Of a stretch of DNA of 64,000 nt, positions 15,887 to 20,090 are shown one piece after another. The number at the start of each line of letters is the position of its first letter. Positions within the stretch are counted from its first letter, which is position 1. The translations under genes were made by a program, and so were the position numbers. The notes under the pieces are model-generated. The model made no database searches and was not told the DNA's origin. It saw nothing but the letters and a program-made list of their open reading frames with translations. Source of the DNA: Rikenellaceae bacterium (GTDB taxonomy: Bacteria; Bacteroidota; Bacteroidia; Bacteroidales; Rikenellaceae); contig SUZE01000007.1 of assembly GCA_015060075.1 (NCBI GenBank), positions 9,119-73,118 on the forward strand, given 5' to 3'.

Positions 15887-15935
15887 AAATGCAAAATTCA
15901 AAATTCAAAATGCAGAGTTAAAAGTTAAATACTCC

Positions 15936-15972
15936 GTCATTGCGAGGCTTGGCACAAGCCGTGGCAATCTCC
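15936..15972. repeat. Single copy of the GTCATTGCGAG-hairpin-GGCAATCTCC repeat unit
   Basis: The sequence gtcattgcgaggcttggcacaagccgtggcaatctcc matches the two units at 731-766 and 789-827. Confidence 0.7.
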
Positions 15973-16064
15973 CTTACATCGGCTTTTAGCCATTAGCCAT
16001 TGGCTTTTACGATTATCGCCTCGCAGATTATTCTGCGAGGCGATATTGCTATATTATTCAAGGT

Positions 16065-16688
16065 CTAATCATTTAAGTTTTTTAGATGGTATGCTATTGC
16101 ATCATTCATCATCTTGCTAACTTCGAGTACCTGATTTACAATAGTAACAAGATATGTTCTAACTGCTGGCATATTATGCATTATGGATTCAGCCGAAATC
16201 AATATTGCATCATCTGCATTGGAATATATCGCTTTGATGCACGATAAATTTTGGGAGATATGGTTACAAGCTTTGTATATAGCAAGCTCCTCTTTGGCTG
16301 TAAATGGTCTATCTTTGAGTGCATCCAAATTCTTTATATTGTATACAGGTGTTCTAACCAACAATATATTGCCTTGAAGTTCTAATCCAATACCCTTGCC
16401 TTCGCAGTTTAGCAAGATGAAAGTTCCGTTATCTCGGACTTCGTGAGGAAGATTTTCTGCTTGCAAGTATTCTTGTATAGCGCTCATACTAATTCCTGGC
16501 GTAAGAGCCTCTAAAACAGCCTTTGCCATACCATCGCCCTTTTCGGCTTGTCGTTGGAGTTTTGTCTTTTTTGCAGGCTGTTCTGTCTTCTGCTTTGGCG
16601 TTTTCTGTTTCTCCTGCTTCTCCGAAGCAACTCCCTGCTGCACACCCAATAATAAAAGGGAGAGGAGGATGGTTAATGTCTTTTTCAT
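16065..16688 (-). CDS. Secreted hypothetical protein, last gene of the AT-rich island
   Basis: It has a signal peptide (MKKTLTILLSLLLLGVQQGVAS), a Lys/Gln-rich linker and a globular domain of about 150 aa. A YbjN/chaperone-like fold is only a weak impression. The gap to the upstream gene is 11 nt. Confidence 0.6.
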   Translation of the reverse strand: MKKTLTILLSLLLLGVQQGVASEKQEKQKTPKQKTEQPAKKTKLQRQAEKGDGMAKAVLEALTPGISMSAIQEYLQAENLPHEVRDNGTFILLNCEGKGIGLELQGNILLVRTPVYNIKNLDALKDRPFTAKEELAIYKACNHISQNLSCIKAIYSNADDAILISAESIMHNMPAVRTYLVTIVNQVLEVSKMMNDAIAYHLKNLND

Positions 16689-16699
16689 AGAAATAAAGT

Positions 16700-17392
16700 T
16701 TAGTCGTTTTTGTCCTCTTGGAAAAGATTTAGTTGCGATTTTTTAGCCTCTTTTTGTCGTTTTCTGCGTTCAGAGGCAAGTTCTTTTTCTCGTTTTTTAC
16801 TCTCTTCTTTCGTCAAAGGAATAAATATATCATTGTTATTAGGATAGTTGCCTTCTATGTATAATTTTACTAATCCTGCATGAGATATAGGCTTTGTTAT
16901 ATCCCTAAATTCTGTATTGGTATTATAATCAAGGAGGACAATATCACTTTTATTTGATTGCTCTTTGATGCGAGATATAACATGTCTTACCTCTGGAATA
17001 TTATCTAATACCCATTTATATGTAGGTAGATAAATCTGCATACGAGCATCAAAATAATTTAGCAACTCTTTGCTCCTTGCTCCTTTTGCATGTCCTAGCA
17101 TTTTACCGTATTTACGAATAGTGCGTTTAACATCTTTTTGAGTATCATTTCTAAATGTTCGAAAATCGACTCCATGATGTTTGAATACTTTTAAGCCTTG
17201 CCATACCGACTCAACACAGGTTGCTGTTAAGCCATCTGTAAATGGAATGGGAATGTTTCCATGAGGATAAAATGGGCTTAATATCTGACCTGAATGTAAA
17301 GGGGAAGTTGATGTTATATCCAAAATAATGGCATTCGGAAATTCTGCCTTAATACTCTCTAATTTTCGTTTTTTATTTGCAATGTAAATCAT
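16700..17392 (-). CDS. Hypothetical protein with weak NADAR (YbiA/DUF1768)-like N-terminal motif and a Lys/Glu-rich tail; candidate antidote to the DarT-like protein
   Basis: Its start overlaps the upstream stop by 4 bp (ATGA at 17389-17392). The block SPFYPHGNIPIPFTDGLTATCVESVWQGLKVF resembles the NADAR block FSNF..DG...SxEHxFQxxKF. The C-terminal D..WG.G NADAR motif was not seen. Confidence 0.55.
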   Translation of the reverse strand: MIYIANKKRKLESIKAEFPNAIILDITSTSPLHSGQILSPFYPHGNIPIPFTDGLTATCVESVWQGLKVFKHHGVDFRTFRNDTQKDVKRTIRKYGKMLGHAKGARSKELLNYFDARMQIYLPTYKWVLDNIPEVRHVISRIKEQSNKSDIVLLDYNTNTEFRDITKPISHAGLVKLYIEGNYPNNNDIFIPLTKEESKKREKELASERRKRQKEAKKSQLNLFQEDKND

Positions 17393-18183
17393 CTTATATA
17401 TTCTGGGTTATCCAAATTTACAATAAATTCTTTTGGAATTACAGTTTTTACTAAAATTTCTGCTTGGTGATGCTTAAAATCGTTATCATCTCTACTTACA
17501 TAAGTTTTCTTGACCGCAACAAAATTAACTCTTTTTAAGTCATAAAGTGTTCCTCCAACATGATGGTTGCTATCTGTTGCATTTATATCGGAGAATAGAG
17601 TCCTTTCCCATAATGCTACATCTGTTTTGATTTTCAATAGTACCAATCTTTTGCCATCTTTTTTATGCCTATAAGCCATAGGATGATCCTCGCAAAAACT
17701 TAAACGAACATAATCTTGTAAATTATATTTCTTATCTAATTGTCGAGACTGCAAATCTCCTCCGGGTGATGGAATTTCTACGCCGTATGTATTGCACGAT
17801 TTCCACGATAATAGACCGCCATATTTTCTTATACTATCCAAGTTGCTTTCATCTGTAAAGTGGTAAAAATATCTTATGCCGTGCGATGCTAACAATTGTC
17901 TAATACTCTCACTATTCTCTTTTTTTGTAGGGAAAAGATTTTTCGTAATAGATAGTCGCAATGGTGAATCAATATTTGCGTTCTTTATCGGAGATGCTGG
18001 CTTAGAAACATCAGATGTTGTATTTATAGGTTTTCTTAACTCAGCTTCTTCATTAGACATTTTAATCAATAGGAATATGACTACTATAAGTGCAATAAGT
18101 CCTAAAATAGGGTGACACGCAAAACATCCTCCTACAATTATTATAGCCCACCAAGCACAGCCACAACCAAATCCCACATCCAT
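17389..18183 (-). CDS. Membrane-anchored DarT-like (DUF4433) ADP-ribosyltransferase
   Basis: The N-terminus has two hydrophobic helices (CAWWAIIIVGGCFAC, ILGLIALIVVIFLLI). The C-terminal domain carries DarT-type blocks YFYHFTDESNLDSIRKYGGLLS, DYVRLSFCEDHPMAY, LFSDINATDSN and HHQAEILVKTVIPKEFI, compared with DarT YH(I/F)T..NL.SI, DYVPFYF, FTD.NA and KQAE(F/V)LV. Confidence 0.7.
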   Translation of the reverse strand: MDVGFGCGCAWWAIIIVGGCFACHPILGLIALIVVIFLLIKMSNEEAELRKPINTTSDVSKPASPIKNANIDSPLRLSITKNLFPTKKENSESIRQLLASHGIRYFYHFTDESNLDSIRKYGGLLSWKSCNTYGVEIPSPGGDLQSRQLDKKYNLQDYVRLSFCEDHPMAYRHKKDGKRLVLLKIKTDVALWERTLFSDINATDSNHHVGGTLYDLKRVNFVAVKKTYVSRDDNDFKHHQAEILVKTVIPKEFIVNLDNPEYIR

Positions 18184-18226
18184 AATTTAAGTTTTTAAGA
18201 TTTAACAAATTTTATTATTATAGTAG

Positions 18227-19363
18227 TTAATAGTTTACAACTTTATCAAATGGTAGCCAACGACCATTTACATTTACTCCAATCCATCGCCATAAGCGGA
18301 TATCTTCTTGTTTGTATTTGGTGATAAACTTGAAATTTCTGTCATAAAAGTACCACTCATTTTCTCTAAGGAGGCAAATTATGTCATCTCTAAATTCAAC
18401 CTGTTCAAAGGAAGCATTTATAACTTGTTGTTCATTTGAATCTACAACGATAAAATACTTATCTCGTTTGGCACCAACGATATAAATATATTCACCTTCT
18501 TTCATGATTGGATATATCTCTTCGTAATTAAATGATATGATAACATTTCCTTCTATATCTGTAACACCCTTATAATAGGGACTTTCAAAGGCTATGCATA
18601 AATTATCGTCATACCTATAGCCTGGATATTTTAAGTTAAGCACAATTTCATTATCCAAGTTTATGTAACACATACCCTCATAATTATCGTTTATAGACAC
18701 CAAGCCATCATATTCTCTCCAACAATCTTCAAGCAATGATAAACTAGAAGCAAACGAAGCATTCCTTTTAAGAATAATTTCTCCTGATATTGAAAAAATA
18801 TAGATAGTATCTGGATGTCTATTTGTCGCCAAAATATATCCATCTAAAGTAAGTGAGATATCGTCATATTCAATAGGTATTATCATTCTACAATTCTTAT
18901 CTATTACTCCATATTTGTAGTCATTAAAGCCACCATGACCTCTTTTATACCTTACTTTTGCCAATCCAAATTCATTGAAATCGCCACAATATTCATATGG
19001 AGCATCTATACCATGACAAAGCGAAAAAGTTTTTGCGTCGTATATGAAACAATGCGGCTTGTTGTTTTCATCCATTTTTAGATGCCTATGCGTAGGATCA
19101 GTGTTATCTTTCAAACACGAAATATTCTCGTTGCTCCAATCTACTGATACAATATAAGCAGTACAAACTGAGTCAGGCGTTAAAGAGAGCATAAGAGTTT
19201 TTTCTATTACACCCTCTTTTTCGATAAAGAACTCTATCTTATAATTTTGGTTAACCTCTAAATCGAGGCAAACTATTTTGTTCGTTTTTAGAGCCTTTAC
19301 CTCTGATGAGCCAACAACCATTGTGCATGGTTTGTTACTGAAAATTCTTGCAATTGTCTTCAT
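18227..19363 (-). CDS. WG-repeat (KWG-like beta-propeller repeat) protein
   Basis: Repeated units of the form F.E.GLA.V......YG.ID..G..IIP..YD are present, for example FNEFGLAKVRYKRGHGGFNDYKYGVIDKNCRMIIPIEYDDI. No signal peptide is present. Confidence 0.7.
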   Translation of the reverse strand: MKTIARIFSNKPCTMVVGSSEVKALKTNKIVCLDLEVNQNYKIEFFIEKEGVIEKTLMLSLTPDSVCTAYIVSVDWSNENISCLKDNTDPTHRHLKMDENNKPHCFIYDAKTFSLCHGIDAPYEYCGDFNEFGLAKVRYKRGHGGFNDYKYGVIDKNCRMIIPIEYDDISLTLDGYILATNRHPDTIYIFSISGEIILKRNASFASSLSLLEDCWREYDGLVSINDNYEGMCYINLDNEIVLNLKYPGYRYDDNLCIAFESPYYKGVTDIEGNVIISFNYEEIYPIMKEGEYIYIVGAKRDKYFIVVDSNEQQVINASFEQVEFRDDIICLLRENEWYFYDRNFKFITKYKQEDIRLWRWIGVNVNGRWLPFDKVVNY

Positions 19364-19395
19364 ATCAGTACTATTTTCAGAGAGAGCTAAATTTA

Positions 19396-19581
19396 CTATT
19401 CATCGTCATAATCTTCATAATCACTACCGTCCCAATCAAAATCGTCATCTTCTTCATCGTTATAGCGACTATATCGATTTCGATTAACCATCTCCATGGC
19501 TTCCTCCATAGCTCTATCACATATATCATCCCAATCCTCCATTGACAACATGTCGTTGTCGTAATCATCAGTGTATCTCAT
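19396..19581 (-). CDS. Hyper-acidic 61-aa protein, first gene of the island
   Basis: The product is MRYTDDYDNDMLSMEDWDDICDRAMEEAMEMVNRNRYSRYNDEEDDDFDWDGSDYEDYDDE, with close to half of its residues Asp or Glu. It lies directly after the conserved leader and 32 nt before the WG-repeat gene. Confidence 0.55.
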   Translation of the reverse strand: MRYTDDYDNDMLSMEDWDDICDRAMEEAMEMVNRNRYSRYNDEEDDDFDWDGSDYEDYDDE

Positions 19582-19908
19582 AATATTTAAGTTGTTTTTT
19601 GCCCACCAACCCCGAATAAGGCGTTATTATAAATAAAGAAAGTGTGAGGTTGATTTTCGTTTATTTATAAGAAGGTTGTGGAATGACCTTGGAAGAATAA
19701 ACGCTACAATGCCTCACACCTGTATATAGCAACATATCGGTACAAGACATACCAACAGCATATATACAAGAAATGAGTGTTGCTCGTCTGCCCTCTTCCT
19801 TTGAAAACTTCCACATTTTCTTATAAGGACTTCGAAAAACACTTTCTATATGTCTGCAACCCAACGGACTGCACCACAAATATAGCAACTTATCTCGAAA
19901 AGTGCAAA
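19582..19908 (-). promoter_or_regulatory. Promoter plus a conserved 5' leader of about 290 nt (copy a of three)
   Basis: On the minus strand, -33 TTTG is at 19905-19908 and -7 TATATTTG is at 19877-19884, with 20-nt spacing. The leader aligns along its length with 35581-35913 and, more distantly, with 27162-27439. All three end in ccttattcggggttggtgggcaaa just before the ATG. Confidence 0.65.
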
Positions 19909-20090
19909 AAATAAGAGCTAACGGTAAAAAGAGAAGTAGTTTTCCGCTTTCCGTTTTAACCCTGCTACGCAGGCTTTTCTTCCTTGCGGCTCGGAAAAAT
20001 GTAAATAAATTTACTTTTTTCGCTCGCTCCGCATCGTCGGTTCCGTTTTGTTTTGTATCTTTGTAAAACAGATACAAAACAGAGATTGGT

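Follow-up and report, generated by a model that had tools for sequence, protein, structure and literature searches.

A DUF6939 gene coupled to a DarT-family toxin gene in a Rikenellaceae genome: a putative NADAR-like antitoxin ending in a motif resembling sliding clamp-binding ones

The stretch of DNA considered here (64,000 nucleotides, hereafter the window) belongs to a Rikenellaceae bacterium (GenBank assembly GCA_015060075.1, contig SUZE01000007.1, positions 9,119 to 73,118) and carries on its minus strand two overlapping genes, namely a gene for a DarT-family ADP-ribosyltransferase and a gene for a protein of the domain family DUF6939, which is proposed to be the antitoxin of the former and a divergent member of the NADAR superfamily. 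In window coordinates and with the evidence on which each assignment rests, including AlphaFold2 (AF2) models, the pair comprises the following features:

17389..18183, minus strand: toxin gene, encoding a DarT-family ADP-ribosyltransferase of 264 amino acids (aa) with its DarT domain at about residues 107-256 (17416-17865); Pfam, PADLOC, motifs, profile and Foldseek
17389..17392, minus strand: ATGA start/stop overlap of the toxin and antitoxin genes, suggestive of translational coupling; sequence, with similar spacing in most toxin-first loci
16700..17392, minus strand: putative antitoxin gene, encoding a 230-aa DUF6939 protein, probable divergent NADAR-superfamily member; open reading frame, Pfam, AF2, Foldseek and hhalign
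16868..17377, minus strand: DUF6939 or NADAR-like putative catalytic domain, residues 6-175; Pfam envelope, covered by hhalign against canonical DarT1-NADARs

The plus strand reads tcat at 17389-17392, i.e. ATGA on the minus strand, so that the ATG of the antitoxin gene (17392-17390) overlaps the TGA of the toxin gene (17391-17389). An earlier note on this DNA, silent on the minus strand, had reported the overlap of this start codon with the stop codon of a DarT-like gene and had stated that the partner is not a macrodomain protein; both observations stand, the upstream gene matching DarT in Pfam (E 5e-26) as well as in PADLOC (E 9e-18), and no macrodomain being found in the antitoxin by the Pfam scan. 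Judging from its full-domain match to the Pfam family DUF6939 (PF22075) and from the size of that family, i.e. 5836 homologous clusters at 90% identity and 947 representatives at 50% identity, the 230-aa open reading frame is a real gene. The match (E 2.5e-64, 216.4 bits for a cut-off of 27) places residues 6-175 on profile positions 1-167 of 167, which corresponds to full-length membership above the gathering score, and the AF2 model of the protein reached a predicted local distance difference test score (pLDDT) of 92.5. Relatives of the antitoxin are annotated as hypothetical proteins in public records, the PADLOC, NCBIfam and PHROGs scans of the antitoxin gave no match, and in the searchable literature no paper naming the family DUF6939 and no described function were found.

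Regarding the genomic context of the closest homologs, a first set of loci was drawn from 80 species genomes, mainly of Bacteroidales, and a DarT-family gene lies directly adjacent to the DUF6939 gene in 75 of them. The toxin gene comes first in about 57 of these DarT-linked loci, mostly with a 4-nt overlap or a gap of 1-4 nt, and the order is reversed in about 18, all of the toxins scanned (61/61) matching the Pfam DarT family.

In the toxin family, the YHFT and QAE motifs are invariant. The profile of the toxin domain retrieved the DarT1 of E. coli C7 (3e-11), a DarTG fusion of T. africanus (7e-11) and the DarT2 of Thermus (2e-10) about equally well, while the AF2 model of the window toxin (pLDDT 85.5) was matched by Foldseek to DarT2 structures with E 2e-8 to 1e-6, those of Thermus and M. 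tuberculosis being the best matches, and to DarT1 with E 5e-6. On these grounds, the toxin is a genuine DarT that falls outside both characterised subfamilies, namely DarT1 and DarT2. Besides its DarT domain, it bears the following N-terminal element:

18034..18159, minus strand: Cys-rich hydrophobic helical hairpin of the toxin, residues 9-50, probable membrane anchor; homolog conservation and AF2

The hairpin (GCGCxWWA...HPIxG...) is conserved in the window toxin and about 20 relatives, and is modelled as helices 9-23 and 25-50 followed by a disordered Ser/Thr/Pro linker (residues 51-72, pLDDT below 50); as modelled, the toxin is probably membrane-anchored, which is unexpected for a DNA-modifying enzyme. 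Other relatives carry coiled coils, leucine-rich repeats (LRRs) or Sel1 repeats, large N-terminal domains without annotation or a C-terminal vWA-like domain instead. The toxins of the reverse-order loci L060-L080 (e.g. L068:4633-6096, from Segatella copri) carry the DarT domain at their N-terminus, followed by a fused C-terminal part of some 300 aa bearing a DxSxS motif reminiscent of vWA/MIDAS; only one of these fused toxins is matched by Pfam VWA_2. Of note, several long DarT toxins (those at L037, L043 and L045) have in common an N-terminal domain of about 350 aa that lacks annotation, bears the conserved motif '(Y)ISL[LF]K[EG]YD' and precedes a charged coiled coil.

Kinship of the antitoxin with the NADAR superfamily emerges from several independent comparisons. 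The antitoxin matches Pfam NADAR-DarT1 (PF22397) with 27.3 bits for a cut-off of 27, on profile positions 43-119 of 212 only, and the same model is matched at E<=0.01 by 25 out of 65 diverse DUF6939 proteins. Reciprocally, DUF6939 is the second-best Pfam family of canonical DarT1-NADARs (E 0.017 and 0.059), which gave no match to the general NADAR model PF08719. Profile-profile alignment by hhalign of 65 DUF6939 proteins with 72 full-length canonical DarT1-NADARs gave a probability of 95% and E 1e-8 to 3e-8 over about 190 columns; these 72 sequences were taken from genome loci, as a query with the 86-aa 8BAT fragment had given only truncated proteins. The Foldseek search proposed in the earlier note as a check for a NADAR-like fold returned, from the AF2 model, 8BAT (the DarT1-associated NADAR of Geobacter lovleyi) as the only meaningful match in PDB (E 1.4e-3, prob 1.00, template modelling (TM) scores 0.43/0.45, 176 columns), i.e. 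the only one with E<1, the next having E>3; the 40-residue tail of the query depresses the query-normalised TM-score. In addition, the broad hidden Markov model (HMM) of the family pairs SVEgiWQgLKVFE with SVESAFQSSKVFE of 8BAT. Because the Pfam match, the reciprocal match, hhalign, the 8BAT fold match and the HMM alignment agree, the antitoxin is supported as a diverged member of the NADAR superfamily, nearest to the DarT1-associated (DarG1/BC4488) type, rather than as a new fold. The profile evidence would indicate homology to PF22397, not membership of PF22397 itself. Uncharacterised proteins of giant viruses (Megaviridae, Solivirus, Pithovirus; BFVD) are also matched by the antitoxin model, with TM-scores of about 0.5.

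The alignments underlying this kinship converge on a small set of residues, two of which can be located as follows:

17189..17212, minus strand: E61-x6-K68 motif (VESVWQGLK), aligning with the catalytic E88/K95 of the E. coli C7 NADAR; HMM and hhalign, conservation
16928..16930, minus strand: codon of D155, a near-invariant Asp and candidate equivalent of D171 in C7; conservation, strand 151-155, YbiA alignment

Schuller et al. 2023 (PMC11543638) showed that guanine de-ADP-ribosylation by the C7 NADAR is catalysed by E88, K95 and D171, and that K115 is a conserved residue among DarT1-associated NADARs. In the canonical alignment, E88 is the E of SVE, K95 the K of SKVF, K115 the K of EAK and D171 the D of FTDIE, this numbering having been checked on L082, where it is offset by one (E89/K96). 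The block SPFYPHGNIPIPFTDGLTATCVESVWQGLKVF, corresponding to residues 39-70 of the antitoxin, was correctly likened to NADAR on account of its Glu, Gln and Lys positions, as E61, the Gln and K68 align with SVExAFQxSKVF of canonical DarT1-NADARs, the E61/K68 motif being paired with SVESAFQSSKVF in the alignments from hhalign and from the HMM alike. These two residues are invariant in alignment A1, K68 being at least 90% conserved in alignment A3, and K89/R90, which hhalign aligns with the K115 region, are invariant or nearly so. More globally, DUF6939 proteins, including those without a toxin partner (hereafter orphans), keep E61, K68, K89/R90, H101, D155 and the SHA motif unchanged or nearly so. 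D155, nearly invariant, ends the last core strand in the AF2 model (151-155), a position that fits the family-defining acidic residue of NADARs, described at the last core strand (PMC11125620). It pairs with the Glu of LVE in YbiA in a weak alignment, hhalign setting instead the canonical D171 opposite about residue 161. From these alignments, the catalytic residues are likely to be Glu61, Lys68 and a conserved Asp, whether D155 or the acidic position close to 161. As for the D..WG.G motif, it is indeed absent from the antitoxin, as the earlier note had remarked; the doubt it cast on a NADAR affiliation falls, as this motif is a feature of YbiA-type NADARs and DarT1-type NADARs carry FTDIEFNP instead. 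Of the two options then left open, a divergent NADAR or a new antidote fold, the former is thus the one retained.

Downstream of the catalytic domain, the antitoxin ends in a charged tail with a motif on which the earlier note was silent:

16703..16816, minus strand: Lys/Glu-rich C-terminal helical tail, residues 193-230, in DarT-linked members only; AF2, orphans ending after the domain
16721..16735, minus strand: QLNLF, residues 220-224, fitting the β-clamp consensus QxxLF / QL[S/D]LF; sequence, enrichment

The Lys/Glu-rich tail of about 40 aa that had been recognised from the sequence is confirmed at residues ~193-230 and modelled by AF2 as one long helix (residues 195-224); QLNLF, borne by the peptide KKSQLNLFQEDKND, lies six residues before the stop of the 230-residue protein. 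The bacterial β-clamp-binding consensus is QL[S/D]LF, more generally QxxLF, and is often C-terminal (PMC12309361). Neither length nor sequence is constant among the tails of DarT-linked DUF6939 proteins, yet almost every one finishes with QLSLF, QLTLF, QLNLF, xSLF or similar: [LIVM]F occurs in the last 12 residues of 56 of 65 such proteins for about 5 expected from shuffled tails, and the strict Q[LIVM]x[LIVM]F in 20 of 65 for 0 expected. Orphan DUF6939 proteins, for their part, stop right after the domain (...YIEGNYPE*), with a single case of [LIVM]F in the last 12 residues among 75. Canonical DarT1-NADARs show a Q..L[FL]-type ending in 30 of 70 cases for 2.7 expected, e.g. QLSLF, QQLSIFD, QGSLF or QSSLL, in proteins from many phyla (loci L081-L160). 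The term 'clamp' was looked for and not found in the Schuller paper and the AdfN preprint, both dealing with DarT1-NADAR, and no paper joining a clamp-binding motif, an antitoxin and ADP-ribosylation was found in the literature search. Given this motif and its distribution, the most likely role of the tail would be that of a tether to the β sliding clamp (DnaN).

Beyond the close homologs, a second set of 80 loci was seeded from distant members of the family (Actinomycetes, Myxococcota, Planctomycetota and other Bacteroidota), to which at least 552 genomes match. DarT-linked members group into coherent clades in a neighbour-joining tree built on the domain, a 60-leaf clade being linked at 93% and a 71-leaf clade not at all, and the five DarT-linked proteins of the distant set are all tailed, ending in SLF, GLF, KLF or PGF. 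Orphan DUF6939 genes (loci L161-L240) are flanked by varied genes, occasionally Nudix/NrtR-like or ARH-like ones. DUF6939 is also found fused to NADAR, to NADAR and microbial PARG, to PARG and WYL, and to DprA. DprA is an ssDNA-binding (single-stranded DNA) recombination mediator, and at the level of domain architecture such fusions would point to ADP-ribose and DNA chemistry. The partners in the fusion proteins P0141, P0142, P0134, P0165, P0167 and P0148 are YbiA-type NADAR, microbial PARG, DprA, WYL-WCX and BspA-type LRR, one protein combining DUF6939, NADAR and PARG. Besides, long eukaryote-like proteins (P0239, P0251, P0252 and P0263; 507-977 aa) bear the DUF6939 domain at their C-terminus. 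Overall, DUF6939 behaves like NADAR, that is a family of mostly stand-alone enzymes, one lineage of which, including the window protein, was recruited as DarT partners.

Altogether, the best explanation, and a fairly probable one, is that the DUF6939 gene is the antidote of a two-gene DarTG-like module that arrived on a low-GC island, and that its product is a diverged enzymatic antitoxin of the NADAR type. As expected from its family, the DarT toxin, probably membrane-anchored, would transfer ADP-ribose from NAD+ onto bases of ssDNA. The DUF6939 protein, as a sister to DarG1 NADARs, would neutralise the toxin by hydrolysing the N-glycosidic bond between ADP-ribose and the base, according to a type IV logic, and its C-terminal QLNLF would tether the enzyme to DnaN, placing it at the replication forks where modifiable ssDNA is exposed. 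From the observed homology, fold, conserved residues, gene linkage and motif distribution, we infer a hydrolase activity with DNA as substrate, and toxicity of the DarT protein as well as its rescue by the partner would be expected along with binding to the clamp. Regarding base specificity, NADARs remove ADP-ribose from amines of guanine and cytosine (PMC11543638; PMC12945103); since the bonds they cut are those of exocyclic amines, the target is more likely to be such an amine than thymine N3.

Several results weigh against this proposal. The first bears on the linkage itself, a DarT neighbour being present in only about 5 of the 80 distant DUF6939 loci: the association of homologs with DUF4433/DarT genes, on which the earlier note had made its finding depend, holds for the clade of the window and fails for the wider family, which implies that the fold is not intrinsically that of an antitoxin. 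That all DUF6939 proteins would be antitoxins was rejected on the same count, the distant loci being mostly orphans. Concerning the fold, the match to 8BAT is modest (TM-score 0.43-0.45, root-mean-square deviation 5.6 Å), the Pfam NADAR-DarT1 match spans just the N-terminal half of the model, plain HMM searches of PDB sequences stayed below significance (8BAT, E 0.17), and the counterpart of the family-defining Asp is ambiguous (D155 or about residue 161). That DUF6939 is fused to other ADP-ribose hydrolases could reflect specificity for another bond. As modelled, the toxin is not clearly a DarT1 and appears structurally slightly closer to the thymine-specific DarT2, so guanine specificity cannot be assumed. 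Lastly, QLNLF could bind the toxin or act as a degron instead, the strict tie of the motif to DarT partnership also fitting a toxin-binding peptide or a degron.

Some of these points feed other explanations of the pair. It could form a reversible ADP-ribosylation switch or defence module with a target outside DNA bases, e.g. RNA, a protein or some small derivative of ADP-ribose, DUF6939 then cleaving the corresponding linkage, which we regard as unlikely. E. coli YbiA, a NADAR, does act on riboflavin intermediates (PMC11543638). The presence of Nudix/NrtR-like and ARH-like genes next to some orphan DUF6939 genes, the complementary specificities suggested by the NADAR and PARG fusions, and the membrane anchoring of the toxin, unusual for a DNA-acting enzyme, would fit such a target, but the DprA fusion and the clamp-binding-like motif both point to DNA. 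To our knowledge, all characterised DarT enzymes modify ssDNA bases, and the window toxin keeps the DarT fold and motifs.

It is likewise improbable that the protein neutralises DarT by mere binding, in a type II-like manner, with a NADAR-derived fold devoid of catalysis and the QLNLF tail as toxin-binding element, by analogy with the C-terminal domain of DarG binding DarT2. The NADAR domain's alignment with the domain of DarG that binds DarT2 (Schuller et al., PMC11543638), the confinement of tail and motif to DarT-linked members and the tight translational coupling of the two genes would be accounted for in this way. The conserved set E61, K68, K89/R90, H101, D155 and SHA is kept even in orphans without a toxin, however, a pattern of invariance typical of an active site, and the family is found fused to other ADP-ribose hydrolases. 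Moreover, the same motif terminates canonical DarT1-NADARs, the toxins of which are only distantly related, and this favours a universal partner such as DnaN. As for a new antidote fold resembling NADAR by chance in its N-terminal block, which the TM-score below 0.5 to 8BAT, the lack of any significant match to a PDB NADAR sequence and the non-significant hhalign result against a small YbiA-type alignment might suggest, it is very improbable given the agreement of the Pfam and reciprocal matches, the 95% hhalign probability over the whole domain, the single fold match to 8BAT and the common genomic partner, and given that accepted NADAR subfamilies are also undetectable from one another by sequence (YbiA misses 8BAT).

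The corresponding searches can be detailed as follows. The protein and two family profiles gave no significant NADAR match against PDB sequences, the top matches (a designed TIM barrel, a 3C protease and RNF8) being dismissed as chance ones over short segments only. The YbiA-type alignment used with hhalign contained four sequences, and a search with E. coli YbiA recovers 8BAU and not 8BAT, making the accepted NADAR subfamilies mutually invisible by sequence.

Returning to an enzymatic, clamp-tethered antitoxin, this proposal might be extended to NADAR-type DarT antitoxins at large, i.e. the DUF6939 clade together with canonical DarG1, as replisome-tethered DNA de-ADP-ribosylases: the clamp motif would have been gained only in toxin-linked lineages, would dock on DnaN and would let the enzyme police the ssDNA of the fork, and DarT toxicity would be released by loss of or competition for the tether, e.g. 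when a phage infects or replication is under stress. This extension is put forward tentatively and is rather doubtful at this stage.

The module lies within a region of distinct composition:

15900..20000, strand not applicable: low-GC island between housekeeping genes, carrying the module; composition profile and flanking Pfam annotations

The island spans about 4 kb at a GC content of 0.30-0.39 vs. 0.45-0.53 in the flanks, which comprise genes for an acyl-ACP thioesterase, a helix-turn-helix protein and a ferritin-like protein on one side and a glycosyltransferase gene on the other. This composition is consistent with horizontal acquisition of the module; no tRNA gene and no flanking direct repeats were found at the island ends. 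A Rikenellaceae contig from a metagenome-assembled genome (L058) is near-identical to the window. Immediately upstream of the toxin gene, the island also holds a gene for a 378-aa WG-repeat protein (18227-19363, minus strand; Pfam WG_beta_rep) and, further upstream, a 61-aa Asp/Glu-rich open reading frame (19396-19581, minus strand); a WG-repeat-like C-terminal extension, not called by Pfam, was recognised by eye in the DUF6939 protein P0137. On the other side, the stop of the antitoxin gene is followed 11 nt later by the start of another gene (16065-16688, minus strand), for this reason possibly co-transcribed, the 207-aa product of which has an N-terminus resembling a signal peptide or that of a lipoprotein and no family match. 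The WG-repeat gene, the small acidic open reading frame and the lipoprotein-like gene were each considered as parts of the system and rejected, none recurring at other loci among the 80 of the close homologs. Between the ferritin-like and lipoprotein-like genes, which converge, lies a perfect inverted repeat of 14 nt around a 4-nt loop (16014-16045), probably serving there, on the border of the island, as a bidirectional terminator; promoter and terminator scans remained at background level.

Beyond the locus itself, these results would provide a testable function for a sizeable domain of unknown function, which counts about 950 clusters at 50% identity and occurs in at least 550 species genomes, and a third antitoxin lineage for the DarTG family, common in Bacteroidales of the human and animal gut and missed by current finders. 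The position of the toxin clade between DarT1 and DarT2, together with a NADAR-like partner, makes it a good place to seek a new base specificity of DNA ADP-ribosylation. If clamp binding holds true, toxin-antitoxin control of DNA ADP-ribosylation would be physically linked to the replisome, a link not addressed in the DarTG literature examined, and this might explain how such systems sense infection or stress.

Among known systems, DarT1-NADAR (DarTG1; DarG1, PF22397; 8BAT and the E. coli C7 NADAR; PMC11543638) is likewise made of two genes, for a DarT toxin and a non-macrodomain partner. The partner belongs to the same fold class, the Glu-x6-Lys motif and the Lys/Arg of the K115 region being kept in the window protein; hhalign also aligns part of the N-terminal extension that characterises DarT-associated NADARs, and a C-terminal Q..L[FL] motif is present in many members of both groups. 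The two differ in that sequence identity is about 20%, DUF6939 forms a separate Pfam family, and the FTDIEFNP block is replaced by LLDYNTNxDF in the family studied here. In addition, the toxins linked to DUF6939 carry extra variable domains (a transmembrane hairpin in the window; coiled coil, LRR or vWA-like domains elsewhere), the gene order can be inverted and the hosts are mainly Bacteroidales.

DarT2-DarG (DarTG2) similarly associates a DarT-fold toxin with an adjacent, translationally coupled antitoxin, and the expected logic is alike, i.e. reversal of DNA ADP-ribosylation, but its partner is a macrodomain of unrelated fold and the partner found here has no macrodomain. The DarG macrodomain hydrolyses thymine-N3-linked ADP-ribose. 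YbiA-type or orphan NADARs (PF08719; YbiA, 2B3W; P. nicotianae NADAR, 8BAU) belong to the same superfamily, keep the Glu...Gln..Lys block, bear an acidic residue after the strand (LVE in YbiA, LLD here) and are mostly stand-alone, as are most DUF6939 proteins; they differ by the lack of significant sequence or profile similarity and by the D..WG.G motif, absent here, and because both occur fused in the same polypeptide the two are not redundant. DarG3 of DarHTG (PMC13069673) is also a recently described non-canonical antitoxin of a DarT homolog, but was rejected as a match, since it has the ADP-ribosylglycohydrolase (ARH) fold, comes with a helicase and is unrelated to DUF6939; a V. cholerae preprint that mentions 'DarT3' added nothing of use.

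As in the β-clamp binders PolC, Hda and Pol IV, QLNLF sits near the C-terminus after a flexible charged linker, and relatives of the antitoxin end in QLSLF, QLTLF or QLDLF at the very C-terminus; the likeness here is one of sequence, and no ADP-ribose hydrolase or antitoxin with such a motif is reported in the literature searched. As the partner has no PADLOC or NCBIfam match, current defence finders would not call the locus DarTG. The module is best described as a DarTG variant hitherto undescribed, which associates a DarT of a third clade with a putative NADAR-like hydrolase of the DUF6939 type and is widespread in gut Bacteroidales.

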